The position numbers were made by a program, and so were the translations under genes. DNA of 64,000 nt from positions 6,418 through 70,417 of the forward strand of contig JBIKRQ010000001.1 in the NCBI GenBank assembly GCA_044349155.1. The letters are read 5' to 3'. The notes under the pieces were generated by a model, which worked only from the letters and a program-made list of their open reading frames with translations, was not told where the DNA came from and did not search any database. This DNA comes from Myxococcota bacterium. Its GTDB lineage: Bacteria > Myxococcota > UBA727 > VGSZ01. Of the stretch, positions 9,150-58,600 are shown piece by piece (position 1 is the stretch's first letter; each line of letters starts with the position of its first letter).

Positions 9150-11126
<1,977 letters not shown>

Positions 11127-21017: not shown

Positions 21018-21131
21018 CGAATCCTCGTTCAAAAGAGTGCAGGCATCGCAGACAGCAGTGAGATGTCAGTGGTGCCGTCGACGTCTCATCCCGAATGGGA
21101 GGTCATTCGGGATGACGCGCGGAGCGGCGGA

Positions 21132-23054: not shown

Positions 23055-23166
23055 GCGGGGGATGATGGCAGAGCCACGGCACGACGCCAGCCGCACAAAA
23101 CGCAGGTGCCGACGCAACAAACGCTGGACAAGCCCAACAGGTTTGCTAAGAGCACGTCCAGACTTC

Positions 23167-23241
23167 GGGCTCGTAACTCAGCGGTAGAGTATTACCTTCA
23201 CACGGTAGGAGTCACAGGTTCGAATCCTGTCGGGCCCACCA
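23167..23241 (+). tRNA. tRNA-Val (anticodon CAC), CCA encoded
   Basis: Folded by hand. The 7-bp acceptor stem GGGCTCG/CGGGCCC has one G-U pair. The D arm is ACTC/GAGT. The anticodon stem TTACC/GGTAG carries the loop TTCACAC. The T arm is ACAGG-TTCGAAT-CCTGT. The discriminator is A and CCA follows. Confidence 0.9.
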
Positions 23242-23252
23242 AGTCGGCAAGA

Positions 23253-23278
23253 ACCCAGCGGCAACGCTGGGTTTTTTG
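23253..23278 (+). terminator. rho-independent terminator after tRNA-Val (8-bp stem, GCAA tetraloop, T-tract)
   Basis: acccagcg-gcaa-cgctgggt followed by tttttgtt. Confidence 0.8.
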
Positions 23279-23371
23279 TTGCCACCACGTCTACGTGAGC
23301 GGCTTTCACGATACGGCAGGTGGGCAGTCAACAGAGTTGCGGTGCCTGATCGCGGGTGCTATCGACCGAAC

Positions 23372-24157
23372 ATGCTACGGGGGGGCCCAGCACTCGCGCT
23401 TTGTGCGCTCACATTGTTCGGCTGCGACCGGTCGGTTGCGCCCGACCAGCGTCGTGCAGCCGAAAACGTCATTGGCAAGCTGCCCGCACCGATCCGCGAG
23501 CGGTTCGCCACCGCTGCCGGCCGCCGCGAGATGGAGCGCGCCCTCGACGACAAAGCGCTGCTTGTCGCCGAGGCTCGACGACACGAGTTTCACGAACGTC
23601 CAGACATTCGGACGGCCGTGCAAGAACTTGAGAACAAGTTGATTGTGCAAGCGCTGCTCGAACAAGAGCGCGCCACCGTTTCATCGACAGAGCCAGAACT
23701 TCGGGCGTACTACGACGCCCACCGCGCTGACTTTCGCTTGCCCGCGCGGCGTGAAACCTCGCGCATCCTCGTCGCTGACGCTGACCCAACCGCGGCGCAA
23801 CAGCGGATCGATGGCTTGAAGAAGCGCCTTGCTGCTGGTGAGCCGTTCGCGGTTGTGGCTGCTGCCGGAGACGGTGCCGAGCGCATCACATCGGGGCGCC
23901 TCGGGCACGTGAACCAAGCGCAGGAGGATCGCGCGCTCGCCGACGCTGTCTTCGCCGCCGAGGTGGGCAAGGTGGTTGGCCCGGTGCGCGTCCGCGACGG
24001 CCAGGCCCTGCTGCTGGTCACCGCCGTGCTGCCGGCGTCTGAGCAAGCTTTCGAGGCCGTCCGCGGCGTCGTCGAGAACAAGCTGCAGCCGACGCTGCAG
24101 CGTCGGTCGTTTGAACGTCTGGTGGAACGTCTGCGGACGGAGGCTGACCGTGAGTGA
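23372..24157 (+). CDS. parvulin-type peptidyl-prolyl cis-trans isomerase lipoprotein (SurA/PrsA-like), copy 1
   Basis: MLRGGPALALCALTLFGCDRS carries a lipobox. A SurA-N-like helical segment is followed by a parvulin-like core (RRETSRILV...GDGAERITSGRLGHV...VGKVVGPVRVRDGQALLLV). Its stop TGA at 24155..24157 overlaps the start of the giant gene. Confidence 0.65.
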   Translation: MLRGGPALALCALTLFGCDRSVAPDQRRAAENVIGKLPAPIRERFATAAGRREMERALDDKALLVAEARRHEFHERPDIRTAVQELENKLIVQALLEQERATVSSTEPELRAYYDAHRADFRLPARRETSRILVADADPTAAQQRIDGLKKRLAAGEPFAVVAAAGDGAERITSGRLGHVNQAQEDRALADAVFAAEVGKVVGPVRVRDGQALLLVTAVLPASEQAFEAVRGVVENKLQPTLQRRSFERLVERLRTEADRE

Positions 24158-48100: not shown

Positions 48101-51100
48101 GATAGGCGTGAAAGCCGTGGACGTCAGCGCCGACATCGTCGAGATCGCGTTCGAGGCCGTTGTTGGCACCGTCGTTGGCGATCGCCGCAGCAGCATTGCA
48201 GCGCCGTGGCGCGTCGACCTGCGCGCTCCGGCGACCACCGGCGCATCCACGGTCGTCATCCAGGCGACCGCCACCAGCCGCTCTGGTCAACAGCTGCGCC
48301 GCACACTCAACCTCACCGTTGTCGACGACCTCACAAACCCATCGCTCTCGCTGCTCGTGCTGCCTGATGGTCCAGTCGCTCCCGGCGCGCTCGTCACAAC
48401 CCGTGCGGTCAGCGATGCAGGCGCGGTCGAGGTCACCACCACCATCGCGATTGACGACGTGGTGCAGCTGACCGGCGGTGCCGAAACGGCCTTCGTTGTT
48501 CCCACGGTTGCCGCGGGCGCGCTGCTCCGTGTCGACGCCGTGGCGACCGACGCGGCGGGCAACCGTCGTCAGGCCACGGCGTCGCGCCGCATTGCCCCTG
48601 CCGACAGCACAACCACAACGTTGACCACCACGCCCGTCCGCCGCCTTGTCGCCGAGGCTGGTGTGCTCGTGGCGCACACCGCGAACGGTGCGCAGCAGCT
48701 CCTGCCGACGTCGTCGTCGTCGCAGCCAGGCGATGTCCTGGCGTTGTGGCGCGGCCAACGTGTGATCCGTGCGGCCAACGGGCTCGTCATCGGCGGCGTG
48801 CCGGTGGCGGTCGGCGCTGTCGACGACGTCAAAACGGGTCACGGGCGACTGCTCGCGCACACGTCGACTGGCCTTGTGGTTGAGATCGATCAAACCCTGA
48901 CCAGCACCGCGATCATCGATGCGAGCGCGCTGCTCGACGTTGGCGTCACCAGCATCCTCGTTGTGCGCGGCGGTCGCGTGCAGCGTGTGGTCGCGGGTGG
49001 CGTCACCACGCTGTTCACCACCACCGAAACGATCCGCGCAGGAGCGGCCATCGACGCCTCACGCGTGCTTGTGGTGACCGACACCTCGACAAGCCTCGTC
49101 GACGTCAGCGAAGGCGTTCTCGCCCGTGTCGACGTCGGTGGCGATCGGATCGTGACCGCGGGGGCGCGCGCCTTCGTGCTTGGCGATGCCTTGTATGAAC
49201 TCGACTTGCGTCGTCGCGCAGCGCTTGGCGTCCGCGCGGTTCGTGAAGCCGACAACATCAGCGACATCGCGGCGTTCGGCGACACCGTGTACTTCGCAGG
49301 CTCGACTGGCGTTCGCGCGCTCAAGTCGGCAGCGACAGACCACGACGTGTATGCGACCGTCTCGACCACAGCCCTCGGCGATGTTCCCGAGCAGATCGTC
49401 GACGTCGCCGGCGACCTGATCGTCCGCGGTGCGAAGTCGCAGCGGCTCGACATTGTCGGTGCGTCTCTTTCGGTGAGCGCCACCAACCTTCCCGTTGGCG
49501 TCGTCTCTTCGTCGACCGACCACGTCGTGTTCCTCACGAGCGAGGGCCGCTTGTCAGCCTGGCGTGCTGCGAGCAGCACCACGTGGACGCCGCTGTCACT
49601 GCCGGGTGTTGCCGCCACGACCACAGGCATCACAACGATGTCGTCGGGCCGTGGACGCGTCTGGTGGGGGCGCGGCAACGAACTCGGCACGGCGGCGTTT
49701 TCGACCTCGATCGCCTCGTTGACCACGCTGGACGGTACAATCGTCGACGTCGCGGCTGCTGGTGCGCAAGCGGCAGTGCTGTTGTCGTCGGGACGCGTCC
49801 TACTGATGGGCGTCGATCCGCGTGGTGCACCGCAGGTGCTCGCGTCAACAGCCGTGCCTGTGGGAACACGCGTGGCCTTCAATGGTGACGACGTGGTGGT
49901 CGCCAGCACTGGCACGCTCACCATCGTGCGCAACGTGAACAATGCACTGCAGCTCGCGACATCGGTGGCCCTCGTCGGCACGCCGCGTCGTGTGCGTCTG
50001 GCCGGGCATCAGGTCCTCGTTGCCGCAGGCAGCGCGGGTTTGCACGTCGTCGACACCGACACGTTCGCGGTCACCACCTTTGCAACGCCGCGCGCCCTCG
50101 ATGCCGCTGTCGTTGGCGATTCGCTCGTGGTGCTCGACGCCCTCGACGGCGTAACAGTGCGCCAGGCGCAGGTGGCCCGTGCGGCCGTGGCGGTCGTGGC
50201 GCCGTCGTCGGCCGACGTTCTCGCCGGCAGCATCGTGTCGGTGTTGGCCGACGCCCAACGCGCCGACGTCACGTCTGTCGAGCTGGTCATGGGGGCGACC
50301 CGTCAGTTGCTCGGCGACGCCGACGATGGCGACCTGCGTTTCAACGTGACCTTGCCGTCGTCGTTGAGCGTGGGCGCGCCGTTGCAGTTCGCGGTCACGA
50401 GCCAGAGTGCTGGCGGCACGAGCACGGCGTTGTCACCGGTACTCTACGTCGCAGCACCGCCGTCCACGCTCAGCGCGAGCTGGGTGGCGCCCGGCGACAC
50501 CGCCGTGCGACCTGGTGCCGACGTCGGGATCGCCATCGACGTCATTGGTGCTGCAGGCGTCGCCACGGGCCTCGTGACGGTCGATGACGTCGCAGTTGGT
50601 GAACTCGTCGACACCACAACGGCGGGCACCACGCGTCGCCTTGTCTCCACGATCACCGTACCGAGCGACGCCGTCGACACCATCGACGTTGATGTCGTCG
50701 TCACCGATGGAGCAGGGCGCTCGGCACAGGTCCGCCGTACCTGGAACGTCATCGCCGACACGGCGCCACCGTTCTCGCTCACGGGCTTGCCGAGCACGCT
50801 CAAAGCGGGGCCCGCCATCAACCTCGTGCAGCTCTCGGCGAGCGACGATGGCGTGTTCGCGTTGGAACTCGCGATGGGCTCGTCGGAGGCCGCGCTCACC
50901 ACGCTCACCCGTGTTGATGGCGTCGGCTCGGCGTCGTTGACTTGGGCGTTGGTGTTGCCGGCGAACAGCGATGGTCGAACAGTGGTCTTGCAGGGACGCG
51001 CGATCGACAGCGCCGGCCATGCGGCAACGCCAATCACCCGCAGCTACGTGGTGGCACCCGACGGTGTGGCTCCGGTTCCAACCGCAGGCGCGCCGTTGTT

Positions 51101-53726
51101 TGCGCGTGCTGGTGCCACGGTCACCCTGACGGCGTCGGCGTTCGACGAAGACGGCGACCTCTTGTCGCTCGACCTGTTCGCCAACGGCAGCCTCGTGAAA
51201 CACACCAACGGCGCCGCCATCGCCGAGCCATACACAGTCGGAAGCGACGACATCGTGGTCACTGTTGTCGCCACCGACCGTCGCACGCGTCCCGCACAGG
51301 TCACGCGCACCATCGATGTTCGCAGCTGCCCCGACCGCACGCTCACCGGCGCTGCGCCGTTGTCTGTGGAAGGCACCGTGCCCGCAGGCGACATCGTGTC
51401 GTCGAGCCGCTGCAGTCTTGGCGGGCTCGCCGACGAGACCTGGTCGTGGACCGTACCCCGCACCGGTCGCTACACGTTCGCGGCAGTGAACGCCCTCGGC
51501 GTCGTCGTTCGCGACGGTGGTTGTGGCGGCGCCGAGTTGGCCTGCAGCGGTCCCTCGAGCAGCAATCGCACGAGCCTGGCGCTCACGGCAGGCAGCGTGG
51601 TTGCGATCACCGTCGAGGACTTCGCCGGTGAGCGGTACACGCTCGACATCACGCGCACCGCAGAGTGCGGCGACGGGCTCGACAACGACAGCGACGGCGA
51701 GGCCGACTTCCCACGCGAGCCGGGCTGCATCGACCTGAACGACGACGACGAACTTGACCCGATCCCGCTGCCCGACTGCAGTGACGGCAACGACAACGAC
51801 AACGATGGTCACACCGACTTCGGGAGCGACCCGAGCTGTGTTGCTGCCAGCGGCACCGAGCACACCCCAGGCGACGTCTGTGCAGATGCACTGGTCATCG
51901 AGCCAAACGCGGTCACGCCAGCCGTGGTGCAGCTGTCACGAGCCGTCATGTCGTCGACCTTGTGTGAACCGGGACCCGACGCGTTTGTGCGGCTCGAACT
52001 GCCTGAGCAGTACCGCGCGAGGGTCGGCGTCGAGGCCTACCTGCCGGGTGGGGCGCAGGCTGACGTTGCGGTGTCCCTGGTGGAGACGTGCGGCACCACC
52101 GCGACGTGTCCTGCCGAGACCTTCGAGGTCAGCGGGTCACAGCTGATCGGCATCACGGGGACTGAAGACGTGAACCTGATCGTCGACGGCGTGCTGCTTG
52201 AAAACAGCCGCTGCGACAAGTTCAACGCGCTCGCGGCTCTTGCAGGCAACAGCAGCAACGTCGATGTGCGCCTCGCTTGCGACGAGGAGCTCGTCTGCCA
52301 AAACGACGGGCAAGGTGTCGACCGCTGCATCAAACCCGCGTGCAACGACGGCAAAGACAACGACCTCGACGGACTTACCGACTCGCCGAATGATCCAGGG
52401 TGCACCGGGCCTGACGACCTCGACGAGGGCGACCCGTGCGAGGCGGCCTACGCTGCACCCACGGTCACCATCACGGGCCAAACGACGACGGGCGGCTACG
52501 AAAACAGCGCAACGTTCACGATGAGCACGTCAGTGCCGGGCGCGTACCCGCAGTACGTGCTCGAGGTCAACGGCGTCGCGCAGCGCCCGCAGCGCTACAC
52601 CATGCCCGTGCGTCTCACGCAGTCCACAACAGTGCGCGGGCAGCTGTTGGTCGGCAGTCGCCTCGCATGCGCCGAGCACATCGAAGATGTCGTCGTCGTC
52701 GACACCAAGGCACCCACCGTGGTTTCAACGCTGCCGCGCAATGGCGCCATCGAGGCCGTTGCTCCGCAGCAGGTGGCGGCGCTCTCCGTCGCGTACTCCG
52801 AGTCGGTGCGCACGACTGGTGCGAGCACGTCCATTGTCGAAGCGGGCACAGACGGAGTCTTCAATACCGGCGACGACGTCACGCTCGAGCCATGTAACGC
52901 CACCGCCGCGGCCGCCGACGTGTTGCTTGCTCCATGCGACGTTGGTCCGGGGCGCTATCGGGCGACGGTGGCGGGTGTGACCGATGCGGCAGGGAACGTC
53001 GCTTCGAGCATTGAGTGGACGTTCACGGTCTCGCTCGACAGCGACGACGACGGCGTTCCGGACACGTATGAAGCGCTTCTCGGCCTTCAGCCCAACAACC
53101 CCGACAGCAACGGCAATGGCAAGCTCGACGGTCGCGAAGACTTCGACGGCGACGGCATCAGCAACGAGAGCGAGCTGGCGCTTGGCACCAACCCCGCCGT
53201 GGCAGACAGCGACGGCGACGGCAAGCCTGACGGCGACGAAGACAGTGACGGCGACGCACTCTCCGACGCTGCGGAACTCCTGGCAGGCACCAGGATCGAC
53301 GACCCCGACAGCGACAACGACGGCTTCCGCGACGGCATCGAGGTGGAGATGAAGTCCTCGCCCAACCTCGCGGCCAGCTACCCCAGCGGCTTCGTCGCTG
53401 CGAACGACCAGCCCACGGTGGTGCGCTTCGTCAACGAGTCAGGCGCTGCAGGCCTCGGCACGTTCGCTTCAACGGCGCAGCCAACGATTGTGCGATTCGT
53501 GGCCGATCCAAGTGCAGCCAACATGGGCACGTTCGCCTCTCGGCAGCAGCCAACGGTGGTGCGCTTCAGTTACGAACTCGGCGCTGCAGATACGGGCACA
53601 TTTGGCTCGCGTGCGCAGCCAACAGTGGTGCGGTTTGTCGTCGACGCAGCGGGGACGGGCAGTTTCGTGGCAACGCCACCGGTATGTGTAAACGGCAGCA
53701 ATCTCGACGGATTGCAGTGTAAATAA
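24150..53726 (+). CDS. giant secreted multidomain surface protein, ~9,858 aa
   Basis: Single uninterrupted frame. A GTG at 24150 is preceded by GGAGG (24137..24141) with a 6-nt spacer, and is followed by signal peptide ALATFVTTTIVAVLCCFSSATSA. Domains read by eye: two Big_2 (~25.0-25.5 kb), ~27 Ig-like ~100-aa repeats (25.5-33.6 kb), six to seven [IPT/TIG x2 - LVIVD propeller - SbsA-like Ig] super-modules (33.6-45.3 kb), more Ig-like and propeller-like regions (45.3-51.3 kb), three Cys-framed DxDxDG motifs inside pre-peptidase-C-terminal-like domains (51.3-52.4 kb), thrombospondin-type-3 repeats (53.0-53.3 kb), and four ~22-aa C-terminal repeats ending in a Cys-x10-Cys terminus. TAA stop. Confidence 0.8.
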   Translation: MSDRHAGRGALATFVTTTIVAVLCCFSSATSAEPVGVSVRQPIRVGSSTTVELSITSSGAQVAVSAHGVDAGGAFAQVDGVTTAVDASGVARLSLPLLRAFPEGGRLDVDIVDIDTSGTRSPAVRRTFDAKAAGPRFDAEPAVEISAGGVGVRLSHPTDVVLSDVRIILASAEALRGVNGDLQRAAALSVLSVGRVTTPTRVGATSTSSFFPLLESRSLPADGVALVEATLSDAFGRTSSRSLVSFVDTGALDQLLSLSIGQGPVLLSAGFGQRLALPVTGHFLIAGDVDLRGAESGVVYTSSDIEVVAVTSDGTLVARNNGTATVTARFGSVEASVDVIVDSTAELVSLAIAAADGGPGATIELPRADVSQRVRLLATLSDDRIVDVSDASTIWASSAPGIVRADPGALLVARAPGEATVTATLGTLQGSARVVVRDGEPTITVSAAQAVAGEAFEVTAYPADDIGVERVTFFINGVPANVLEAAPWTIQLQAPPRPGAQITVAAVVTDTAQQPTRSSDVNVSVVAAPVPSAVALSFVKPTTSSFLVAGQGTTLTVSGGSQRGLQAVRFYADGTLIGTSTAARVVLEPGVATAEPVQRVLWEVGYTPATSLAGRGVVLRAVGVEASGAETAAAVVAVRVQADTTAAIVMAAPLASPVQATVGRVMTFSGTIVDDTLALGAQLTLVVDERDIASTNIVATTTDGSIAGTAPFAVRFVPTAIRHEVSIRVTDTNNKVTSRSFVVLTTTELPPEVLILTPVVGASFAVGQLVQLSAAIVDESASTTTVQWFVNGSPVATTDPTGLTASFRAGVAQVGGPVTIEALATDDTGNPRRAARDISVVPDTKVPVVNIDSSLSPSVVVNNDLLVTVTGQDEGGIDRFELLVDDVLVASTNAPGQAGDLDVAHLLVPRAQLARLGAHTLKARAFDKAQNPGASPDVAISVVADGPPSVAIANNRRVVTGSTFTLEATASDDTRVVEVELQCNGVTTVRTAPPYTAPCTAPLAPGPLEVVVTARDATHATTASKTLAVVADTKEPLVSIAPTSLSPHFVGRPLTVEVTASDDTAVASISLTLDDVVLGPPLRRRIGLYEVASWSLPGATFANAGQRLLVAKVVDSSGNPTERSSTLLVVTDRAPVVTITEPAGRSIHKEGDDVTIAWSASDDDGLVGAVGVSGGVFQGVLPTTTTPTSLRGQQVTVVQGPTRSAEASVGIAAKDTAGQVTIKTVDLTIRADLEPPQATLVQPALSATPIVVYAGGALGMRVEGTDDVRIQRVEVAIDGVPLASLDRISEVLETTRFPDPFQPGQTTTSKLRRSVFGEVVSLAGVAQGPHTLKTTVYDLANPVTLREVQIDVRPFTDDQKPVATIVLSPTPDTCVINATIDVRVTATDNVRVSSMTATIGGEQREVIGGDATFPYVVAGPVGARRSFSLVARDAAGNQGTASASCLVVADAAPTVAVTTPASGDVVYPMETVNVSSRVFDDRGGTRTFAFAATALPSVVGGAVAVGISSAQRSLAIDAGGGGADVSVSAGVVTVVPRGAVGEAPLRVTFDAPSRCSIHSVWRTRLGADSSALATFVEQAEALAVEHDCRGSVELDVPHNDIDVVAVQVDFKDGAQVEVGYVDRVPSSVSYADGADALAVALRGATVLAPTTTTVSAPLRIPAAVSLFVGTVAIDVVGQSTLGVSSIFVEEDETAPTVTIGSPVAGRSFVEGYELPIEVSSVDRLATIDVSVLVNSTIELPARFTAGSAWAAVHLPSVLKQERTLSMVATAVDEAGNRSTSAPVVVNIVPDARPAIAFTELRSPVQSYDEAALSGGVVDILQGQRVAVAATCTDDIGVQTVSATIDGTDLPLTRSGSSVQMAWDVPLGADGTPHVLVVRAGDGTAFTERSLVLVALVPKAPVLGIVAPAAEQPLPEGSIRFVVDAIAADDTEVAAVDVLLDGQLALTIDRGEALSIGEVDDAGVAKATDAATQMVLNEMDPEHRDARSVLRFGGTIDLLPGFLVAGERSSFVVTVVARDIEGYETSAERTVVLVDDQTPPHVVVYRPGLAAAVHENALLEVNFDARDDVFVAAVEVRAGDLTAAFDDLEIVETIGGFDLDSVRTAEGNDVVFGPFTVDVPAPAKAPDVEDFVVAIVATDVNGLRSAPEYIVVSLKPDTRPNLSLDVSTTAVVGTTLPVHADAFDDVGVTQVELTVNGLSFQVLQRPPWTFLVPLTAVGTISLDATAMDSAGHVTPLAAPVAVEVKEDTAPAVRVSSPQNHDIRVEGRPLLVQVAANDDVEVAGVSLNVVGLPQPLRLASAAAPWVFSIPLPFGSAGRQLLLTPTATDSHGTSTTGETIQVDVVADRAAPSVAFLAPADNSRLVGGRPFEIDIDADDNVGVQRVEVVALIGGTPTPLPSIAAPPWRTVWMVPTAVGPVVLRATAFDASNNATPTEVLVTVDDDTKPLVSLVGPAKVTAGVPFSLTAEPKDDTGIAYVSFRAAYGTAEPVEIGRRYQQPHTLIHTVPKALIGTAVTFSVVAIDDAQQPGDAAIEPLVVQADTPPTVAVRRPQRDTFVFSGRSMQLEVDASDLETNVAEVSFFVNGRRVATRTAPAGLPGLSHTYVAPFMVPVGVGNRQFSMWATATDSSGNPAMSEVVTFGSIVDTVRPDAALVSPASLDVLTAGTPTTLQATALDNASIQKVAFEVGGSLVGEATVPVVSVAGQPQYEFDWRVPTQPGQLVEVVADASDPTGNHRRTAPVSFEVGLAPATSVPMNSVSVAAITRDGFVAAFNTVPRPTIELKRVGTSTTTSLASIALGDQETVQALATDGRLLAAAVAVAGTTTLRVYDVGLPTVPVLRSTLALNEADVAGMLLDDGILHIASPSRGVTRVSLRTPSAPLRLDTTPTVGSAHALAIAANRWLLVASDGGLRIHDLRHPRLLEVAFVPVPGGARSVAVDGNRAYVGGADVSGSLCAIDLADINVPYIVSIGTHRPRRADHLSKGLAFVDVEGQLVISVADVIDQDARAVKGLVNVATTNNPTAVLYRANQPRSLTEAATSHARPVGIANGRIVSFAGDSLQTFVVPALTIVGTTPGDTALAATDAVVSVRFNTAVVSSSVTATSFAVHAGDLTGPTVPGEVRVVGDLVTFTPASTLDEAAGYTVVLKGGASGISGEQTHLLADHSFRFQTATSSSDAPTIALVSPAAGTVLGGTEVMIAGAGFQPGATVAFGVEASPAVRFVSPGELRAVTPPGPSGPVAITVVNPDQQEDSVLAGWLYLDGVSVGGVAPSSGHLAGGDDVELTGSGFAPGMAVWFDDQQASNVRVESSGRALVTTPPHAFGPADIVVVVEGEQAVQPAGFFYSDLSVSARVSRYEPAIDGSVRPVNKLPGRSLALTAGPADDVVVLGAAAINTAAANIATLLSTSRAGAVNIVDPAGPVIVGGIDLPLPYAPTSIAVSRDGSTAWVLATGATLVDLELAGEGRTALFVFDLTMPTAPQLATSLQVSRTGTGAGTLALIDDVLFAALGSDGVGVFSTAVPTSPTYLGAVQGFVVAGRSRDLVVDHVAADGPRLLAADALAAVSVVLDTTRAGLPVLRATGASFTAAASRADFIWRVVPAGRDATLLQRLAGQPTWAVQDTRGAAIAGTRASHANLLASTSAVASSGEGGGALELFGAPDAAMKHIDAVSLYPAAMLTGVQIAGGRAVVAVQSSVTANERELSNDALVIVDLPFPLVVATSPAANATSVSPATSIDLTFSRDIDNVVATLVARDGSTDGQAVDVSVSTSGKVVHLQPLQSLATSTNYEVKLTSAMCCARATLPAPFTFRFTTGTVATSSEPVIAALAPRTGSVDGGAAVTITGLGFEVGAVVTVGGEVATVEHVDATQMRFVTPRGVAGAATVVVTNPSGAQATRVGGHIYLDNLAIDALEPARGSVEGGTEVLVRGRGFALDSDVTVHFGATPARTVRVLGPTLLRVVTPGGTLGSVDVTVDSGGQRAIAAAAFTYDAPTANSVEVGGVVSDMALVGDYLVVAAGTEGLKVLDTTGRYRFGPLAGTLIPPERRSRLVDENGDRIDDRVVGTWSSASHAVRRLARAPGHGGDRLLVGATADSLVRVFELDLSAPEAPALQHEELVTGAKVLGDIDLDGERLLVATDVGVVSYDVSGAPFEVARTATSTTALAVTGGVGAFGNSAGATLFDGHAPVPNGGTAFAVNTRALDVAADGSVVAATPTGVAVFGFGMPLTSSLFATGAYDIDLVNGIAHVASGSDGVRVFAVDRGRLESLYAIAPASSGSVEVVATDGHQIASARRADGRWFIDWTLHGDLMLTSSSIAPDAVLEHDPSPITLSFSRPLDASTVPLSTTLTIGNERISIAVAGGSLAAPVSTLSIVAGTLPSGGVGELRIAGLRSVDGRTLRHDIVIPVTTARRAGVAPVLSTVSPRLISTKGDTVVVLSGQAFDEPVVTIGGFEATVVSSEAREIVVQAPEGPRGLADVQVTNASGLHDELVGGCVYVEPIAVDSATPRFLNPLGGTLVTIRGHGFMRAGLEAPTGPTVFFRGVPAVQVITRSDTLLQAVAPAGTFGPVPVVVRDAASKRAEGPVLGYGLTSTHSERVSGTTVSSIDIDESQPGYAFAAGGASNGGNRTPRPFVGPLMGAGTIPTTTSAIGFDISGSNGPKTALAAFSALSDNPAEENLLADLVIAVLSFRTPRTVALPDVDLMPDSHDTLVTGDRVLVANGEAGLVSLAMTGEGTTASFFRESSTQAQLARRVALRGHTALVTGIEMGVDPPPDDQDGCNGTKPAKNQDGTVQIVDLRQANDPVTVGALAGGNAIDVAVARAGHAAVLSSSLKGVLYCPPSAAQIASGNPLPQPPEWSLDVLPGHNTWNQSWARIDVLGAVSTNAVLKAQLSLTEDAADVVWITDRVLAVAVESGVRFYDVGARLTQVAFVPFDETLMAVPGKPNALELVGDVLFVASRGGGVVLIDVRKPTVPDVLSAGNTENAIDVDVFGDRAYVAGGASLVELAMPFMLATGSAPARDERVAPTAAPLRVYLNRPVAGFAPSTVVLTGPAGRVEIDVTTERDNARERHAVVATPRAPLAPETSYELTVGTTLTDTQGGRLLLPWTTSFTTGPAGTLQPSIDEVRPLFASAGDVVTVSGTNLTGVKHVRIGGVAASFDIVDGALAVVVPQLAAGSHDVEVVDAGGPTATEPQGLLVLAPLEPATVSPAHGPLAGGTRVTLTFPRASLAPGSSITIGDVAGVAVDVDTLMVVTFATPQRDLAGLVRVAVTRPGEAPVVVGSFAYETPEQLSIDLPGYPDRVASDIALRATRLFVASDASGYFGADIMDISLPERPLRRGSLVTTAPVHGLDVRDDLLALAVDERGVQLVDVFDENAPFVVREVPVFGRATDVRFREQSLWVTTSVDGAAGGFLQEVSLTSQPTTLRAIEFDEDVLAVDEGLDGLAVLTSDITATGADGLTLRLLDANGATTNSIAVDAGVASVADRVRSRLLLLPGRAYVTIGNQVQVYSTSPLTLLETKVVGVRTAGLTRQGALVYVASAAEATLTALEVSRFQVFNVAPRGLAQASTAVSAEVSQPISARSLSPTSMPVTSAFGAVDGTHEVTFDVRGAVATFTPQGLLPARVTASLTTDLRSFSAEPLATPVSWSFTTVDGDQPTITSVTPHTVSIDAPFLLAIDGSGFNEASRVFIGDQEWPATLVGDGHLEVDLEGLGNEGLYAVEVVDASGLRARRDAAIRVDDNLTLIALSPTSGPLMGTNTVTLTGRGFRPGMAVVFGATASFLVSVDSSRSARAIVPPGTSGLVDVTVQVTQEQAQLPAAYRYGSGAVATVTSPPLADVALHGTDIWTAAGGALTREGVTIGQPRGMIVGWDASEPNALRQYQGVIDVGGSGVEHLVVVDDLLYAAAGTAGVQLVDISVTDRAAVVATAAGDGAVHDVVVRDDIVLAADDAGISQLLRTPAGLVALGRVSIAGGVRRLAVARNLVVASAADGTLLVVDARRGDLRVLGRLPLGSAATDIEVDGNRAFVALGAQGMVQIVDLTEPTAPAPIGTVVLQGDAEAWDVDVTMDTILVAAGAGAIQRFSVPVGAQPAWVETLSLNDDVRSFERRGQRLFAATVYPLRAGERLAAGTPLTVSDKLSGAVVTVSTEHLEVLELNPTTIDPIAPNAALTVALGEQLSPSSRAGISLHTDAGALEPLRTQRVDATRILVDVSTGSTLPAGQAVQLTLAGLKGLSTSTQPVTQRATWQTGTRPNESAPAITEVSPAVAPLAGAPLHIRGAALPADATVTIGGAVAVAMSSSRADDLVVLAPAGVEGAATVEVTTPGGLVARRWGGVRYLRSPTITTVQPTSQPFNSRGAVVVKGTGLSSASVVRFGAVPARTTSQQADGSLLVTIPDDVIGDVSVTVANPGDVAIATAATAFTFTLTSHSTIPVDGQRVAARGRRLAIADATRVHLYDTTVPTAVRELATVTLGASALDLELDDDSIVAVTSSALYRWSLARCTPSSCILGAPEVTTYVGGNHVAVGTADDRLVMAVTDGDEATLFASIDGVFDVVASTVLEAPIAELAVTTAGIVALTDATPASLLLLDSTNGLLDVIERRELTGDAVALSTFGTQVAALTTTGFVVVDVDGAIAPVSAGTAVGGSIALHGPVLAIAGANTSLFDVTTSTARHLSFTPTWSRGVAFSNGTLVALSSTAAVLALPYAVPASSTPLPGGALVVGEPVTIALGTEAPVTTVLGGFVNLGVAQHQLTTASSFGAVANVPVVGSFAASVQFGAWPVNNSAFGSPWRFGWHAVDGVPHTLTSVTPDHGPQAGGTVVALSGQGIGTATRLEVGGDVVAFTPTLEGIEFVTPAARAAGPVDIVVTTPTGTLRADAAFAYIAPLTLSTITPAVVDNLGGSVELRGSGFTRGARVTIDNVAVAATFVSSTALQVAVPAGPNAALAVTVTQPGVASVTRSDLLQRDDRHGPVVVNLLPADRPVSPTSSLQLVFDEPVGVPLSPIVLAGVSLAPQRSSVDPRVVELNNATLPSSGSMNLVVRAQRDLLGNAGTEKAIVFRVQDVEKPTLSLRRQGAAVVDGTPFARGLPWTFSLNVNDDSHVVSSLVVTIDGVVVANRTGVSDQTLEFTWAWPQATIADSTSHIAITAIDAAHNQRDLGVNVRVTADNPPAAPTIVFSTASPQDAEPVVVDVASIDDIAIARLVLTVDGQVVSDGSNQTTSVRQRFSAGDHVITARATDNGGQTSPLASRTISVSADTTPPQISLLAPVATARLPKDRQVTIDLDVTDTGGVGSVELRTAGVSRTLSAPPWRFDVMPDSSTLQVDVTALDTRGNHNTRQFTWQTTEAPGSLRLTSPAGDARINEHSTLTIAGTASAATVRVDAFGETVEVAVDGGRFATTRLAPTVVEDEVAVISVGDGRNTAARTVRIVNVDEATGELHVLRWPNGAPLLAGTRLDVAQTVSVPATPSTSIVQDAVVIGSGDSTASATTTSDAHDVTIVAAAITTAAGTALSAAENVAVTPWLTTESNNVIEFDDRTAEVVTVDADTSGATTLALGRTSGGRALLANASAHIDFAGDPVGLVSAGDAVLVVINHQGSTQVQRRRRDTLALTGTTTIAGTTNAVVEAVGLVALGQDDGLVVIRPDGTELQRHVLGAITALASTGNKVTAVVDAADVVDLDVLTGTVSAVAPATATWPQPIDAVAGAGTTLCVLGGANATDIVCADNAAVELPLPARSLSRFGPHLLVHGLADTSLLVGGAAVFSTEDEGVVVSGDRWFFTRNNTVHMRRLHRAAPASVELSGTIPTTMAATTTAASGLTVSSNSDVVDVVTVDVFVDGGRVARAFNGVPALPSIAAGAHEVTICATSVSGAQSCRNSTTTFEPTAPAITAWRVATTATAGGVVNLEFVLQGAVAAVVVDVNGVDQGTGTPLQQREVVMPSAAGSVVVGAVPVAADGTRGARVTSTIAVVAATSAPTFELVRDGSGAIAEGTPIGVKAVDVSADIVEIAFEAVVGTVVGDRRSSIAAPWRVDLRAPATTGASTVVIQATATSRSGQQLRRTLNLTVVDDLTNPSLSLLVLPDGPVAPGALVTTRAVSDAGAVEVTTTIAIDDVVQLTGGAETAFVVPTVAAGALLRVDAVATDAAGNRRQATASRRIAPADSTTTTLTTTPVRRLVAEAGVLVAHTANGAQQLLPTSSSSQPGDVLALWRGQRVIRAANGLVIGGVPVAVGAVDDVKTGHGRLLAHTSTGLVVEIDQTLTSTAIIDASALLDVGVTSILVVRGGRVQRVVAGGVTTLFTTTETIRAGAAIDASRVLVVTDTSTSLVDVSEGVLARVDVGGDRIVTAGARAFVLGDALYELDLRRRAALGVRAVREADNISDIAAFGDTVYFAGSTGVRALKSAATDHDVYATVSTTALGDVPEQIVDVAGDLIVRGAKSQRLDIVGASLSVSATNLPVGVVSSSTDHVVFLTSEGRLSAWRAASSTTWTPLSLPGVAATTTGITTMSSGRGRVWWGRGNELGTAAFSTSIASLTTLDGTIVDVAAAGAQAAVLLSSGRVLLMGVDPRGAPQVLASTAVPVGTRVAFNGDDVVVASTGTLTIVRNVNNALQLATSVALVGTPRRVRLAGHQVLVAAGSAGLHVVDTDTFAVTTFATPRALDAAVVGDSLVVLDALDGVTVRQAQVARAAVAVVAPSSADVLAGSIVSVLADAQRADVTSVELVMGATRQLLGDADDGDLRFNVTLPSSLSVGAPLQFAVTSQSAGGTSTALSPVLYVAAPPSTLSASWVAPGDTAVRPGADVGIAIDVIGAAGVATGLVTVDDVAVGELVDTTTAGTTRRLVSTITVPSDAVDTIDVDVVVTDGAGRSAQVRRTWNVIADTAPPFSLTGLPSTLKAGPAINLVQLSASDDGVFALELAMGSSEAALTTLTRVDGVGSASLTWALVLPANSDGRTVVLQGRAIDSAGHAATPITRSYVVAPDGVAPVPTAGAPLFARAGATVTLTASAFDEDGDLLSLDLFANGSLVKHTNGAAIAEPYTVGSDDIVVTVVATDRRTRPAQVTRTIDVRSCPDRTLTGAAPLSVEGTVPAGDIVSSSRCSLGGLADETWSWTVPRTGRYTFAAVNALGVVVRDGGCGGAELACSGPSSSNRTSLALTAGSVVAITVEDFAGERYTLDITRTAECGDGLDNDSDGEADFPREPGCIDLNDDDELDPIPLPDCSDGNDNDNDGHTDFGSDPSCVAASGTEHTPGDVCADALVIEPNAVTPAVVQLSRAVMSSTLCEPGPDAFVRLELPEQYRARVGVEAYLPGGAQADVAVSLVETCGTTATCPAETFEVSGSQLIGITGTEDVNLIVDGVLLENSRCDKFNALAALAGNSSNVDVRLACDEELVCQNDGQGVDRCIKPACNDGKDNDLDGLTDSPNDPGCTGPDDLDEGDPCEAAYAAPTVTITGQTTTGGYENSATFTMSTSVPGAYPQYVLEVNGVAQRPQRYTMPVRLTQSTTVRGQLLVGSRLACAEHIEDVVVVDTKAPTVVSTLPRNGAIEAVAPQQVAALSVAYSESVRTTGASTSIVEAGTDGVFNTGDDVTLEPCNATAAAADVLLAPCDVGPGRYRATVAGVTDAAGNVASSIEWTFTVSLDSDDDGVPDTYEALLGLQPNNPDSNGNGKLDGREDFDGDGISNESELALGTNPAVADSDGDGKPDGDEDSDGDALSDAAELLAGTRIDDPDSDNDGFRDGIEVEMKSSPNLAASYPSGFVAANDQPTVVRFVNESGAAGLGTFASTAQPTIVRFVADPSAANMGTFASRQQPTVVRFSYELGAADTGTFGSRAQPTVVRFVVDAAGTGSFVATPPVCVNGSNLDGLQCK

Positions 53727-53738
53727 GCAGGAGAGAAT

Positions 53739-54935
53739 ATGCTTGGAATCTTGTTGCTACACTTCAATCTCGCGGCGCAAGTCGTCCTCGTCGGCGGCAG
53801 CACCGGTGCAGATGGTGTTCTGAATAAGGACTATCTTGACGTGCACGACACCGATGGTCAATTTGGGAGCCCATATCTCCTCACGGTCCCGGCGGGTGGG
53901 CGATTTGAGTTTTCTACGATCAACATTCCAGCGAATGTCACTGTCGGGTTTAAAAGCAATGCAATGAATGACCCTGTCTATCTGCTGGCAACAGGCGATG
54001 TCACGATCGCAGGTCTCGTCCATGTCGACGGGCAACGGGGTCAAACCTCGGCCGGCGGGCGCGGTGGGCCTGGTGGCTACGATGGCGGCGAACCAGGTTT
54101 CGGCGCCACGCCCGGTGACGGCCACGGCCCTGGAGGCGGCCATTTCACTCCGGTAGCCGTTGAGGACAACAACTCACGAAGGGCCCTTTGGTCTGGCAGC
54201 TACTCGGCCGTCGGCCCCGACGGGACGGGTTGGGGTAGAAAGGGCACCGGATCCATCTATGGAAATCCATCATGCTTCCCCCTGACAGGTGGGTCGGGGG
54301 GAGCCGGTGGCTTCAATCAAGGCGGCGGTGGTGGTGGTGGTGGCGCGATCTTGATTGGGTCTGAAGGCAAGATTTCCATCTCGGGAGCTGTGCGCTCACT
54401 TGGCGGTATCTACCCGAACCAGCTGACAGCAGGTAGTGCCTCGGGCGGGTGCGTTCGGATCGTCGCACCGGCCGTGATTGTAACGGGCACGTTGGAGGCA
54501 ACCAGTGTGTTGCCAGGCGTCGACGGAACCGAGTACGGCGGTCGGGGCTTTGTCCGTATTGATACCATTGACCGCTCGGGTCTCGCTGGCATCTCCACCC
54601 CAAGATACAGCGTTGGATCTAATATGGTTGTGCGACTCCAAAGTATGCCACAAATTAGTACAATTTCGGCGGCTGGCCGCACCGTCATCAATGGTGAGAA
54701 GCTCTTCGTGACACTCACCAACGGCGAGCCCGCGCTGCAGGATGTTGTCGTCGAGGTCGCCAACTTCCCCGGGGCACCTGCCTGCGTGAACCTCAACGTC
54801 ATCACCGTGCCCGGCAGCGGCGCGGCCACGAAGACCTCGTTCCCCGCGAAGCCCAACGGCACCCACACGTTGTCCGTGAACATTCCGCAGAACACGGCGA
54901 CGTCGATCGAAGTCTACGGCACGGTGTGCCCGTGA
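53739..54935 (+). CDS. glycine-rich secreted protein, probable beta-helix fold (398 aa)
   Basis: Strong SD AGGAGA 5 nt upstream of the ATG. Signal peptide MLGILLLHFNLAAQVVLVGGSTG. Gly runs (GGRGGPGGYDGGEPG, GGGGGGGGAILIG) alternate with short hydrophobic rungs. The 5' half is ~50-55% GC, markedly below local background. Confidence 0.6.
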   Translation: MLGILLLHFNLAAQVVLVGGSTGADGVLNKDYLDVHDTDGQFGSPYLLTVPAGGRFEFSTINIPANVTVGFKSNAMNDPVYLLATGDVTIAGLVHVDGQRGQTSAGGRGGPGGYDGGEPGFGATPGDGHGPGGGHFTPVAVEDNNSRRALWSGSYSAVGPDGTGWGRKGTGSIYGNPSCFPLTGGSGGAGGFNQGGGGGGGGAILIGSEGKISISGAVRSLGGIYPNQLTAGSASGGCVRIVAPAVIVTGTLEATSVLPGVDGTEYGGRGFVRIDTIDRSGLAGISTPRYSVGSNMVVRLQSMPQISTISAAGRTVINGEKLFVTLTNGEPALQDVVVEVANFPGAPACVNLNVITVPGSGAATKTSFPAKPNGTHTLSVNIPQNTATSIEVYGTVCP

Positions 54936-55657
54936 AACGAGCGGCGCTGCTCGCCCTGCTGGCCGCGGTGGGCTGCTCGGGTTCGGGCGGTCCGAACGTC
55001 GCCGGCACGCCTGTCACCCCGGCAGACCTCGCCCTCGCCGAGGGCGCTTCGGCGCGCGCGTCCCTCGTCGACGACCTGCTGCTGCTCCGCCACGCCAAAG
55101 ACACCGACGCGCTTACCGACCCCGAGCTGCAGGCCCGCCTGCACCGTGCTGAACGCCAGCTCGTTGCCCAGCACGTCACCGACACGCTCGGCAAAGACCT
55201 CGACGACGCCACGCTCCGCAAGGCCTTCGAGAGCGAGCGCGCCTCGCTCACCAAGCGTCGCATCCATGTCGCCCACATCGTGCTGCCCGTGGGCAACGAC
55301 GGCGAACTCGTGCTGGCGCGCCTGCGCAGCGGGGCAGCCTTCGCCGACATCGCCCGCGAGGTCTCGCTCGACGGGGCCACGGCCGAGCGCGGCGGCGAGC
55401 TGCCCGAATTGCTCGAGGGGCAGGTCGACCCGGCGTTCTTCGAGGCCGCCGCGGCCCTCAAGGTCGGCGAGGTCAGCAACGTCGTCGTGGTGGGGCCACA
55501 ACGACACATCATCACAGCACTCGCGGAGGCCGACACCGCGACGCCAACTTTCGAAGCAGCCAAAGACGCTCTGCGCGCGCGGCTGCACCAGCAACGTCGA
55601 GCCGAGCTGCTGACGACGCTGCGTGAGCGCTACGGTGTGAAGGCGGGGGATTTGTGA
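54926..55657 (+). CDS. parvulin-type peptidyl-prolyl cis-trans isomerase lipoprotein, copy 2
   Basis: GTG start (54926, or 54932 giving MKRAALLALLAAVGCSGS with a lipobox). The parvulin-like core is KRRIHVAHIVL...VGEVSNVVVVGPQRHIITAL. It overlaps the preceding gene's stop, and its own stop overlaps the GTG start of the next giant gene (GTGA). Confidence 0.6.
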   Translation: MPVKRAALLALLAAVGCSGSGGPNVAGTPVTPADLALAEGASARASLVDDLLLLRHAKDTDALTDPELQARLHRAERQLVAQHVTDTLGKDLDDATLRKAFESERASLTKRRIHVAHIVLPVGNDGELVLARLRSGAAFADIAREVSLDGATAERGGELPELLEGQVDPAFFEAAAALKVGEVSNVVVVGPQRHIITALAEADTATPTFEAAKDALRARLHQQRRAELLTTLRERYGVKAGDL

Positions 55658-58600
55658 ACCGGTACGTGCTCCTGGTGGTGGTCGCATTGTTGGCAGGCTC
55701 GCGCGTCGAGGCTGCCGCGAACCCGTGTGTGCCCAACAACACCGCGCCGGCGTGCGATCGCGACGCCGACGGCCTGACCAACGCGCAGGAAGCCACGTTC
55801 GGTACGAACCCGGTCGTCGCCGACACCGACGGCGACGGCGTCAAAGACGGGGTCGAGGCCTGGAGCGACAACGACGGCGACGGCAAGAACAACGCAATCG
55901 AATCAAAGATCCTCGACGCTGACGGCGACACCACCGCCGACCAGTTCGACGCCGCCGACGCCAACCCATGCGCGCCTGCGCTGTCGGCACCCACCTGCGA
56001 TCGCGACAACGATGGGCTCACCAACGCACGCGAACTCACCTTCGGCACCAGCAGCACCAATCCCGACACCGACGGCGACGGCGAGCGCGACGGGATTGAA
56101 GCTCCGCTCGATACCGATGGCGACGGCAAAAACGACGCCCGCGAATCGTCGCTGCTCGACGCCGACAGCGACGGCGTGGCCGACGAGACCGACCCGCAAA
56201 ACACCAACGCCTGCGTGCCCTCAAACCGCGCTGGCACCTGCGACGCCGACGGCGACGGCCTCACGAACGCGCGCGAAGCCACCTACGGCACAAACCCCGA
56301 CAACGTCGACACCGACGGCGACGGCCAGCCCGATGGCTGGGAGGCCGCCAGCGACGACGACCAGGACGGCAAGAACAACGCCCTCGAGAGCCGCACGAGT
56401 GACGTCGACGGCGACGGCACTCCCGATCAATGGGACGCTGCCGATGCTGACGCCTGCTTCCCTGACGCGATCTCGTCGCCGACATGCGATGTCGACCTGG
56501 ATGGCCTCACGTGGCTGCAAGAGCAGACCTTCGGCACAAACCCCACGCTCGCCGATACCGACGCCGACGCCGAACTCGACGGCCTCGAAGCCGCCCTCGA
56601 CACCGACCACGACGGCATCAACGACGCGCTCGAGTCCTCGATGGTCGACGCCGACCAGGACGGCCTGAGTGCCGAGGCCGAGCTCGACGACGGCGATGCC
56701 TGCCACCCCTTCGACCTCGCGGGCACCTGCGACTTCGACATGGACAGCCTCACCAACGCCGAAGAAGCCCACTTCGGCACCGACCCCAGAAACCACGACA
56801 CCGACGGCGATGGCGGCTGGGACGGCGATGTGGGCGAAGCGTTCTCCGACGACGACACCGACGGCATCAATGGTGCCCTTGAGTCCGACGACGTCGACAC
56901 CGATGGCGACCTGTACGTCGACGAATACGACCACGACAACGTCGACCCCTGCGTGCCCGATGCTGGATCACTTGCATGCCTCACCCTGCGCGCCGACACC
57001 GACAACGACGGCCTCACCGACGCGCGCGAGGTGCAGCTCGGCACCGATCCCGCCCGCGCCGACACCGACGACGACGGCCTGGGCGACGCGTACGAAGTCA
57101 CCACTGCGGCCTCGCCCCCCGACCACGATGGCGATGGCCTGATCGACGCGCGCGATCCCGACGACGACAACGACGGCGTGCTCACGAGTGCGGAGCGCGG
57201 CCCCGACCCGCTGTCACCGCGCGACAGCAACGGCGACGGCGTGCTCGACCACCTCGACCCCTGCTTCCCGACGGCGTGCGCAGAACCACTGCAGCCGCTG
57301 GCGTGCGCGGGCTTTGGCGACGTGTGCGAGCAGTGCCTCACCGCCGAGCTCGATGCCGAAATCACCAGCGCCGCTGGTGCCGAAGCCGGCCGCACCGACG
57401 CCGTGCAGTGCTTGTGCCGCGACGCGCGTTTCGTCGTGCCACACACCTTCGGCGCCACCGCACCCGTCGCTGCGGGTTCCGAAGCATCGCTGCAGTTCGA
57501 CAACGGCAACACCCTCACGCGCTGCACGTACCGCGCGGCCGACGACGTGTTCGCGTTCGTGTCGTGCCTGAGCACCGCCCCGGGAGCGATCGCCGCCGGC
57601 GACGAAGTGCCTGCCGACGCCGTGGGCCTGCGCATCGTCGATGCGCCCACCACAACCACCGTGGGCCTGGCCCTCGTCGACGCCCTCGCCCCGCCACCCA
57701 CGCTCGCGTTGTCGGTGCAGAACCCCGCGGGCGCTGTGGCCGACGGCAGCATCGTGCAAGGCCCCGTCACCGTCGCGTTGTCGACGAGCGGCGAAGATGT
57801 CTCGACGTTCTCGCTCAATGGCGAGCCGTTTGCGGGCGGCACCATCAGTGCCGAGGGCACGTGGTTGCTCAAGGCGAAAGCTGGTTGCGGCGCCACCGTC
57901 GTCGACGCGACGCATGCCTTCACCATCGACAACACCGCCCCAACAATTGAGATCACGGGCGCTGTCGACGGCGAGATCCGTCGCACCGCTGCCACGATTA
58001 CCATCGCCGCGACTGACGCATCAGCCGTGGTGCTCGAGGCCAGCATCGACGCCGAGCTCGCGGGCACCTCCACCGTCGTCGACACCGACGGCGCGCACAC
58101 CGTGATCGCCACCGCGACCGACGCCGCGGGCAACGTCACCACACGCACCCTGCACTTCACGCTCGACCAGACAGCGCCCACCATCGATGTCATCGCGCCG
58201 CTCGGCGGCAACGTCAGCAGCGCCACCGTCGACGTCAACGTCATCGCCACCGACGCGTTTGGCATCGCCGACGTGAGCGTGTCGGGCACCTCGTTGTTGC
58301 GGAGCGACAACGACCACTACCGCGGCACGGTCACGCTGGTCGCCGGCGACAACCTGCTGACCTTCGACGCCGTCGACGTCGCGGGCCACCACACCACCGC
58401 CGTTCGTCACGTCTTCTTCACCGCGGGTGGTGAAGGTGAAGGCGAGGGCGAGGGCGAAGGTGAAGGCGAGGGCGAGGGCGAGGGTGAAGGCGAAGGCGAA
58501 GGCGAAGGCGAAGGTGAGGGCGAAGGCGAAGGTGAAGGCGAAGGTGAAGGAGAGGGCGAAGGTGAAGGTGAGGGCGAAGGCGAAGGCGAAGGTGAGGGCG

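Follow-up and report, generated by a model that had tools for sequence, protein, structure and literature searches.

In T-even-like phages (Straboviridae), such as Salmonella phage S16, a small monomeric protein, gp38, is encoded by the gene right after a long fibre gene and caps the distal end of that fibre; it combines a beta-helix with conserved glycine-rich motifs that alternate with variable segments, and it has been proposed that modules are exchanged by recombination at these motifs, as hot spots (PMC12032242). Our subject is a gene, here called c0, on the plus strand of a 64,000-nucleotide (nt) stretch of DNA from an uncultured Myxococcota bacterium (assembly GCA_044349155.1, contig JBIKRQ010000001.1, positions 6,418 to 70,417), a stretch that we refer to as the window. 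It encodes a glycine-rich protein of 398 amino acids (aa) directly behind the gene for a giant, fibre-like protein, within a patch of low GC content. We tentatively favour, with somewhat less than even confidence, the interpretation that c0 provides this giant fibre with a terminal or specificity module from a gene of its own, with alleles that are exchanged and rare codons that have long been kept. Gp38 seated on its fibre gp37 may be the closest functional analogue, and the likeness is one of analogy only: c0 likewise follows a fibre-like giant gene, is predicted to form a beta-solenoid with glycine motifs and variable loops, and appears to have had its allele exchanged. It differs from gp38 in having no detectable homology, either in sequence or in fold, with the attachment domain, beta-helix and polyglycine-II sandwich of that protein, in an extra C-terminal immunoglobulin (Ig)-like domain, in belonging to a cellular host and depending on Sec, and in variability that is spread along the protein, where gp38 has four short loops.

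Loci of the RHS/YD kind (WapA, the Rhs proteins of type VI secretion systems, Tc toxin BC) provide another point of reference. The operon that contains c0 ends in a giant with DUF6531, a domain that usually precedes RHS repeats, and the locus is a mosaic, in which some blocks are conserved and others differ strongly between close relatives. In E. coli, classical Rhs elements have a GC-rich core beside AT-rich exchanged segments. The AT-shifted exchanged unit here is not a toxin tip or immunity gene but an accessory gene that precedes the RHS protein; no component of a type VI or type VII secretion system or Tc-A was seen near the operon. A further likeness is to the PrsA and SurA parvulins, since each giant gene is preceded by its own gene for a lipoprotein parvulin peptidyl-prolyl isomerase (PPIase). 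This likeness concerns the neighbours of c0; c0 itself has no PPIase or chaperone signature. The operon runs in the order PPIase1, giant1, c0, PPIase2, giant2, with neighbouring genes overlapping by 4-10 nt or lying 12 nt apart, and its features are listed here with the evidence for each.

23372..24157, plus strand: PPIase1, parvulin-type, predicted lipoprotein (MLRGGPALALCALTLFGC; lipobox LTLFGC); Rotamase_2 match at E=1e-17, start and lipobox from the sequence
24150..53726, plus strand: giant1, an Ig-repeat surface protein of ~9,860 aa; open reading frame (ORF) listing, Pfam matches, start-codon candidates
53409..53685, plus strand: giant1 C-terminal tail, made up of four tandem repeats of 69 nt (23 aa), QPT(V/I)VRF...GTFAS; repeat search, translation
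53430..54713, plus strand: patch of rare codons and low GC content at third codon positions (GC3), covering the giant1 tail and c0 codons 1-325; GC3 profile, rare-codon counts
53729..53735, plus strand: Shine-Dalgarno sequence AGGAGAG, in the 12 nt that separate the TAA of giant1 from the ATG of c0; sequence
53739..54935, plus strand: c0, 398 aa; translation, homologues, alignment, AlphaFold2
54926 or 54932..55657, plus strand: PPIase2, parvulin-type, predicted lipoprotein (lipobox LAAVGC), GTG start; Pfam and NCBIfam matches
55654..64000, plus strand: giant2, running off the window; open frame, Pfam matches

c0 is a real conserved gene in a large family without a curated name. It has at least 968 matches in a 90%-clustered database, all of them unnamed ('hypothetical'), and 4,797 representatives of 50%-identity clusters match at E<=1e-3, with 1,675 at E<=1e-30; an identical c0 sequence is on record in JGI sample 3300059473, which belongs, like SRR34292207, to the source community. 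Neither c0 nor its Akkermansia and Variovorax homologues match Pfam or NCBIfam at E<=0.01, a sequence search of the PDB gave no match to c0, and our literature search returned no description of the family, as a component of any RHS system or otherwise. An alignment of 54 family sequences contains 32 invariant columns. Its conserved motifs are SGSTGADG (right behind the signal peptide), NTPVYLLATGDVTI, GGPGGFDGG, PGDGxGPGGG, PLxGGSGGGG, GGGGGGGAILIAS, GSGGAIRLVAP and GRIRID, and variation is greatest in segments 121-160, 241-280 and 321-360, with the Gly motifs conserved. The c0 protein is about 40 kDa in size and has a short hydrophobic N-terminus, and most members of the family carry a clear Sec signal peptide in the alignment.

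The genomic setting of the family is equally consistent. We examined 88 c0-family loci from more than ten phyla, with sources in Verrucomicrobiota (including Akkermansia muciniphila), Planctomycetota, Lentisphaerae, Sumerlaeota, Nitrospirota, Methylomirabilota, Rokubacteria, Acidobacteriota, Burkholderiales and Xanthomonadales. When their ORFs were clustered, the sole consistently conserved neighbours were large Ig-rich proteins encoded on the same strand, and the c0-family gene lies nearly always immediately downstream of one of these. A gene for an RHS/YD toxin often shares the operon: an RHS/YD or DUF6531 protein was found in the window (the DUF6531 of giant2), in Proteobacteria and in one Verrucomicrobia locus, L004, where the RHS proteins are upstream. 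The proteobacterial order is a protein of ~1,000-1,300 aa with TIG and 'choice-of-anchor Z' repeats, then c0, sometimes duplicated in tandem, then an Ig-rich protein of ~2,100 aa and an RHS/YD toxin; at loci L025 and L069 the downstream proteins match RHS_repeat, RHS core and Rhs_assc_core.

The protein upstream of c0 ends in one of two ways, either in TSP3 repeats and then 3-6 short repeats of the G.TVA.PPVSV.LP type, of which QPTVVRF in the window is a variant, or in an IPT/TIG domain. The type of tail tracks the c0 subfamily and not the host phylum, such that repeat tails go with a class-A c0 (439 and 421 bits) in the gammaproteobacterial metagenome-assembled genomes (MAGs) at L011 and L021, and TIG tails with a class-B c0 (200-270 bits) in other Proteobacteria. 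In one protein of 7,437 aa, P0204, residues 3947-7410 consist of eight tandem units of TSP3 plus a c0-like beta-solenoid, with a period of ~455 aa and covering profile positions 44-266, which shows that the c0 domain also occurs in fused form, behind TSP3 repeats. The original prediction had offered a structural cap or adaptor for the giants as one possible role, and strict adjacency, the fused protein and the tracking of tail type with subfamily are all compatible with such a role, which is the one that we infer and prefer.

Structure prediction outlines the architecture of c0. A confident AlphaFold2 model of c0 built on the 54-sequence alignment (mean predicted local distance difference test score, pLDDT, 87.9; predicted template modelling score, pTM, 0.88) has an N-terminal hydrophobic helix, beta-solenoid rungs at residues 46-95, 203-219, 238-253 and 271-278, a variable low-confidence loop at 140-170 and a seven-strand Ig-like domain at 305-396. 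The Gly-rich stretches 96-135 and 180-202 have no regular secondary structure and are modelled at pLDDT above 90. By DSSP the model has about four rungs, and a site could be formed by the invariant residues R240, R273 and D275. Neither the sequence nor the model contains a beta-barrel, transmembrane segment or lipobox.

Set beside right-handed beta-helix proteins (the pectate-lyase superfamily, phage tailspikes, autotransporter passengers and the GGA(I/L/V) repeats of chlamydial Pmp proteins), c0 shares stacked three-strand rungs that start with Gly-rich turns (GGGAILI, GSGGxIRLVAP, GGxGRIRID). Pectate-lyase and tailspike helices form a long solenoid, typically of seven or more rungs, with a catalytic groove. 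c0 differs in its roughly four rungs, in a Gly-rich insertion of ~100 residues between rungs 1 and 2, and in having no beta-barrel translocator. The pectate-lyase-like membership that had been raised for it did not hold, given that no Pfam family matched, including Beta_helix, Pectate_lyase and Chlam_PMP, and that its best Foldseek match had a template modelling (TM) score of 0.10; nor did membership of the bactofilins (DUF583), which are cytoplasmic polymers with a Pfam family that c0 does not match, whereas c0 family members carry signal peptides. Structural matches in BFVD to 'collagen-like' and PA14 proteins reached TM 0.24-0.35, and we rejected kinship with these since such scores probably come from Gly-rich composition.

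Comparison of the window with close relatives sets c0 apart from the genes that follow it. The closest of these relatives, L007, begins at window position 53557, and the comparison covers the window only from there; the identities at the level of aa, nt and fourfold degenerate sites were:

PPIase2: 95% aa; 92-100% nt; fourfold sites 0.87
giant2 residues 300-900: 92% aa; about 87-95% nt; fourfold sites 0.83
c0: 54-57% aa; 52-78% nt; fourfold sites 0.40 (chance 0.27)
giant1 tail: 74% aa; 0.67-0.69 nt; fourfold sites 0.37

Giant2 itself is 85% identical in aa, with a fourfold-site identity of 0.76. The P0003 contig repeats the pattern, with a PPIase that is 91% identical to that of the window and a c0 that is 52% identical, and c0 is thus phylogenetically discordant with its flanking genes in both comparisons. 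The giant1 tail and c0 diverge together against L007. Because c0 is discordant with a near-identical PPIase2, it was, we conclude, swapped as an anciently diverged allele by recombination, and the right breakpoint of this exchange lies near 54,960, at the c0/PPIase2 junction. The comparison with L007, from 53557 onwards, does not reach the left boundary of the divergent block, and the giant1 C-terminus used as a query for this boundary gave remote matches only. A search of JGI metagenomes for close relatives, with the PPIase as query, gave only distant PPIases. Inside the divergent block is a conserved island, 53686-53774, with 88% nt identity to L007, which runs from the final 13 codons of giant1 (where PPVCVNGSNLDGLQCK is identical) through the spacer of 12 nt and its Shine-Dalgarno sequence into the first 12 codons of c0. 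This island may be a recombination junction or a constrained signal for coupling or export. A second hyperdivergent block (61-78% nt identity to L007) occupies the first ~250 codons of giant2 (55636-~56400), where TSP3-like CDxDxDGLTNAQE repeats are flanked by near-identical sequence, PPIase2 on one side and the remainder of giant2 on the other.

When L094 and L095, which are more distant, are compared with the window, divergence is similar in all genes. In other lineages the identity of c0 is about that of its neighbours, and this argues for a local recombination event and led us to reject hypervariability as a trait of the family. The original prediction had suggested a horizontally acquired cassette; as an exchange of alleles this stands, and as a foreign insert it fails on the shared synteny and on the low GC3 that c0 has in all six loci of the clade.

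The patch itself is real, though milder overall than first described. The region 53400-54700 has a GC content of 59.7%, against a whole-window mean of 66.6% (standard deviation 1.7% over 1301-nt windows), and the 1301-nt window starting at 53421 is the GC-poorest in the 64 kb, the next non-overlapping minimum being 0.617. The earlier figures of ~50-57% against ~70% fit only the local minima, which in 300-nt windows are 0.507-0.567 (53550-53999) and 0.573-0.60 (54450-54899) with flanks of 0.65-0.73; for the patch as a whole ~60% against ~67% is nearer. The abrupt change to A/T-ending codons that had been noticed is borne out by the GC3 profile. In the giant1 frame GC3 falls from 0.82-0.96 to 0.68, 0.64 and 0.58 across 53427-53726 (the last ~100 codons), such that the left edge of the patch, at ~53430, falls inside the tail repeats; in c0 it stays at 0.52-0.68 over codons 1-325 and then rises to 0.92 over the final 73. 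A second low-GC spot, at ~13,190-13,520 (300-nt GC 0.50), equals the minimum of the patch and lies at the 3' end of a minus-strand ORF, 13077-17093 (1,339 aa, without a Pfam match), beside dapB/dapA. Within the giants, GC3 is moderately low at 41,592-42,340, 58,354-58,800 and 61,354-62,100 (0.63-0.69 against means of 0.78-0.82), the last of these shortly preceding DUF6531.

The amino acid content of c0 does not account for this composition. With 19% Gly and a GC content at second codon positions of 0.32-0.76 along the gene, c0 might be expected to yield a dip as a by-product of its Gly, Asn and Ile codons. With the amino acid sequence and the codon usage of the window (16,122 reference codons) taken as given, codons 1-325 had an observed GC3 of 0.597 against an expected 0.795 +/- 0.022 (z = -9.0), and total GC was 0.592 where 0.661 was expected. 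The dip thus persists given the amino acids, non-Gly codons shift too (GC3 0.61 against 0.80 expected), and the by-product explanation has next to no chance of being right. Across the two giants, all of 476 windows of 325 codons have a higher GC3 (minimum 0.677). Rare codons make up 12.3% of c0 and 4.5% of the reference (2.7-fold), with 8.0% in the top reference window; T at the third position rises to 25.5% from 13.2%, and A to 14.8% from 8.1%.

The same composition recurs in relatives of the window. Gene order is the same in all six loci of the Myxococcota clade, where GC3 is 0.62-0.70 in c0, 0.81-0.85 in the PPIase and 0.77-0.87 in giant2, and these loci are near saturation against one another (fourfold-site identity 0.29-0.53). 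A low c0 GC3 that is kept across saturated loci is therefore a long-standing property of the gene and not the trace of an un-ameliorated import. We extended the test to 48 loci of the family, here with amino acids and the codon usage of the neighbours taken as given, and found z<-2 in 26 of them and z>2 in one; the 26 include genomes of 43-48% GC. Strong deficits occur at L055 (z = -9.6) and L076 (z = -9.0), in lineages where c0 is not unusually divergent. Averaged over the family, the deficit has its centre in the Gly-rich core (-0.08 to -0.11 in octiles 3-5) and is absent from the Ig-like domain; in the window clade it covers the first 80% of c0, counted from the N-terminus, and reaches into the tail of giant1. 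Judged from these codon statistics, the low GC reflects a preference for rare A/T-ending codons that is specific to this gene and has long been kept; it is not foreign DNA. Candidate causes are slowed or limited translation of c0 and the avoidance of extreme GC in a message rich in GGN codons.

Two other explanations of the composition have to be set against this. In one, the patch is a recent foreign cassette that retains the un-ameliorated composition of a lower-GC donor. The change in composition is abrupt and ignores gene borders, c0 and the tail differ strongly from those of L007 where their flanks are near-identical, and the family is abundant in lower-GC Verrucomicrobia. Yet every relative has the gene in its syntenic place, beside the same neighbours in close and distant loci, where an acquired islet would be expected to be absent or unlinked; amelioration would have erased a donor signal from the six saturated loci; the nearest c0 alleles are all on high-GC contigs; and the deficit that is also seen in low-GC genomes (41-48% GC) is left unexplained by a low-GC donor. 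No mobility genes, tRNA (by ARAGORN) or flanking direct repeats were found at the patch, and we rejected mobile-element borders there. A recent import is thus very improbable. The other explanation is neutral: AT-biased mutation would be unopposed, through relaxed codon selection or through less GC-biased gene conversion, which would follow from rarer recombination between deeply diverged alleles. It gains from the coincidence of the patch with the hyperdivergent block (Spearman rho 0.58 between identity and GC) and from the presence of the deficit in both high-GC and low-GC genomes. It is hard to reconcile with the normal GC3 of the divergent block at the giant2 N-terminus, with a family-wide deficit that sits on the Gly-rich core regardless of divergence, and with the strong deficits at L055 and L076, and we regard it as unlikely. 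An internal promoter, terminator or RNA element within the AT-richer stretch was also considered and rejected, no promoter-like site, terminator-like site or Rfam match having been found in the patch.

Two alternatives concern what c0 does. It might be an accessory for export, assembly or anchoring, periplasmic or in the outer membrane, that holds or threads the tail and does not set specificity. The invariant place in the operon behind the giant, the translational coupling, the Sec signal of most members and a rate of evolution that in most lineages does not exceed that of the neighbours all suit such a role, and R240, R273 and D275, if exposed on the stacked rungs as we suppose, could bind the acidic TSP3 repeats or tail. 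Secretion accessories are, however, usually the conserved part of a locus, and here it is the PPIase that is conserved and c0 that is discordant; the lack of a beta-barrel, transmembrane segment and lipobox also tells against it, and c0-like domains as internal repeats of a giant (P0204) better fit a module of structure or display. An accessory role is possible, though we think it on balance unlikely. The predicted beta-solenoid would also suit a secreted beta-helix enzyme, a polysaccharide lyase or depolymerase acting on the matrix or on a target cell envelope; the best, non-significant PDB match is a capsule-degrading tailspike, and invariant Arg, Asp, Tyr and Asn residues are present. With no enzyme family in Pfam or NCBIfam at E<=0.01, only about four rungs in the model, no PDB sequence match and a Foldseek TM score as low as 0.10, we consider an enzyme quite unlikely.

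The terminal or specificity module that we favour also has findings that weigh against it. The N-terminus of c0 in the window clade (MLGILLLHFNLAAQ) is without the positively charged n-region that a standard signal peptide has, which makes export less certain for this clade than for other family members. Outside the group formed by the window, L007 and P0003, c0 evolves at about the rate of its neighbours. The discordance could equally reflect recent homogenisation or transfer of PPIase2 and giant2 and not a replacement of c0, and the compared loci could be paralogues. The second hyperdivergent block keeps a normal GC3 (0.82-0.92), so allelic divergence alone does not produce low GC3, and most Verrucomicrobia loci have no GC3 deficit. 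Foldseek against the PDB found no analogue of c0 at E<0.001 (the tailspike, at E=0.039, was the best match), gp38 was outside its top 50 matches, and tblastn of c0 against 50,697 phage records found none. The window c0 likewise had no match in PHROGs, where five of 54 relatives match the unannotated phrog_13336; membership of the phage tail fibres, which had been put forward, falls with these searches. Finally, the association of c0 with the giant1 tail is one that we infer.

If c0 is such a module, the locus could work as follows. Both giants would be exported by Sec, and each would fold with help from its cognate PrsA/SurA-like lipoprotein PPIase. c0 would be made by coupled translation right behind giant1, exported, and docked on the C-terminal TSP3/repeat tail of giant1 as the terminal module of the fibre. 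Variable surfaces of c0 on the conserved Gly-rich scaffold would set binding specificity, either towards target cells or for kin recognition in the delivery of RHS toxins. A bolder version, which we hold to be doubtful, would make c0 the founder of an undescribed class of exchangeable fibre-capping modules with a fold of Gly-rich-scaffold beta-solenoid plus Ig-like domain, used with RHS toxins in many diderm phyla, including by Akkermansia muciniphila, as the cellular counterpart of gp37/gp38, with rare codons selected to throttle or pace its synthesis relative to the preceding 30-kb gene.

Giant Ig-repeat proteins and RHS toxins are widespread, and how they are displayed and how their target specificity is set are poorly understood; the c0 family is a concrete candidate for the missing terminal or specificity component of such giants. 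Its carriers include the gut commensal Akkermansia muciniphila and the culturable Variovorax (Variovorax sp. W6, locus L083), Lysobacter (Lysobacter arvi, L049) and Rhodanobacter (Rhodanobacter thiooxydans, L025), which makes these ideas testable. That one gene of an operon keeps a style of rare codons and low GC3 across deep divergence is an unusual compositional phenomenon, and since a low-GC patch can be a stable property of a gene and not a sign of foreign DNA, it matters for the heuristics used in island prediction.

The remainder of the operon and its surroundings can be described briefly. The junction between giant1 and c0 is as the original prediction had it, with a TAA stop (53724-53726), a textbook AGGAGA Shine-Dalgarno sequence and a product of 398 aa ending in EVYGTVCP, and the patch does sit between two foldase/giant modules, that is, two PPIase-giant pairs. 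The start of giant1 overlaps the stop of PPIase1, and the start of PPIase2 overlaps the stop of c0. Giant1 (9,844 aa in the JGI annotation) has a predicted N-terminal Sec-type signal peptide, Big_7, TIG and Big_5 domains and then TSP3 repeats, with no RHS, and its tail repeats lead into PPVCVNGSNLDGLQCK and the stop codon. At 53295-53390, around DSDNDGFRDGIEVEMKSSPNLAASYP, giant1 has a weak match, below cut-off (E=0.0017), to the NCBIfam 'Amuc_1099 family pilus-like system protein', which covers the last TSP3 repeat and a GSxPxDxxSxP motif before the tail repeats. Giant2 (at least 4,520 aa in the JGI annotation) has a signal peptide, TSP3-like repeats and Ig-like domains, and then DUF6531 at ~63,055.

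The spacer between giant1 and c0 is 12-13 nt in all five close loci. In the window the giant1 stop and the c0 start are in one frame, separated by the TAA and four codons (53724-53741); the frame is also shared in L008 and the P0001 contig and not in L007 or the P0003 contig, and a match in only three of five loci, no better than chance, is probably coincidence. Stop-codon read-through was rejected accordingly. Upstream of the operon are dapA and dapB, the best named relative of dapA (84% identity) being from a Myxococcota MAG. The plus-strand ORFs in 20217-23639 resemble non-coding shadow frames, and a c0 paralogue upstream of giant1 was rejected, ORF 22503-23639 having no similarity to c0. 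One further feature lies directly upstream of the operon:

23167..23241, plus strand: tRNA-Val(CAC); ARAGORN

tRNA genes are common sites of island integration, and the whole operon of more than 40 kb might therefore be an island.

Several minor features recur among the other family loci. Tandem duplicates of the c0-family gene are present at L031, L047, L049, L059, L070, L071, L077 and L081, which belong to Proteobacteria, Nitrospirae, Acidobacteria and Methylomirabilota. In several loci of Verrucomicrobia and Lentisphaerae (L001, at 8327-8971, L002, L009, L014, L032 and L056), the c0-family gene is followed by an uncharacterised protein without a Pfam or NCBIfam match, which is ~215-290 aa long in most of them. 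At L026, an Akkermansia muciniphila MAG, a full-length c0 relative (~9,860-11,032) lies directly behind a 1,559-aa protein with LVIVD, Big_7, Big_5 and TSP3. In several unrelated phyla the giant/c0 operon is preceded by genes for Ser/Thr protein kinases, a number of which have WD40 or TolB-like propellers, for example at L018 (3094-6309) and L083 (3336-5435) and also at L030, L048, L054 and L072.

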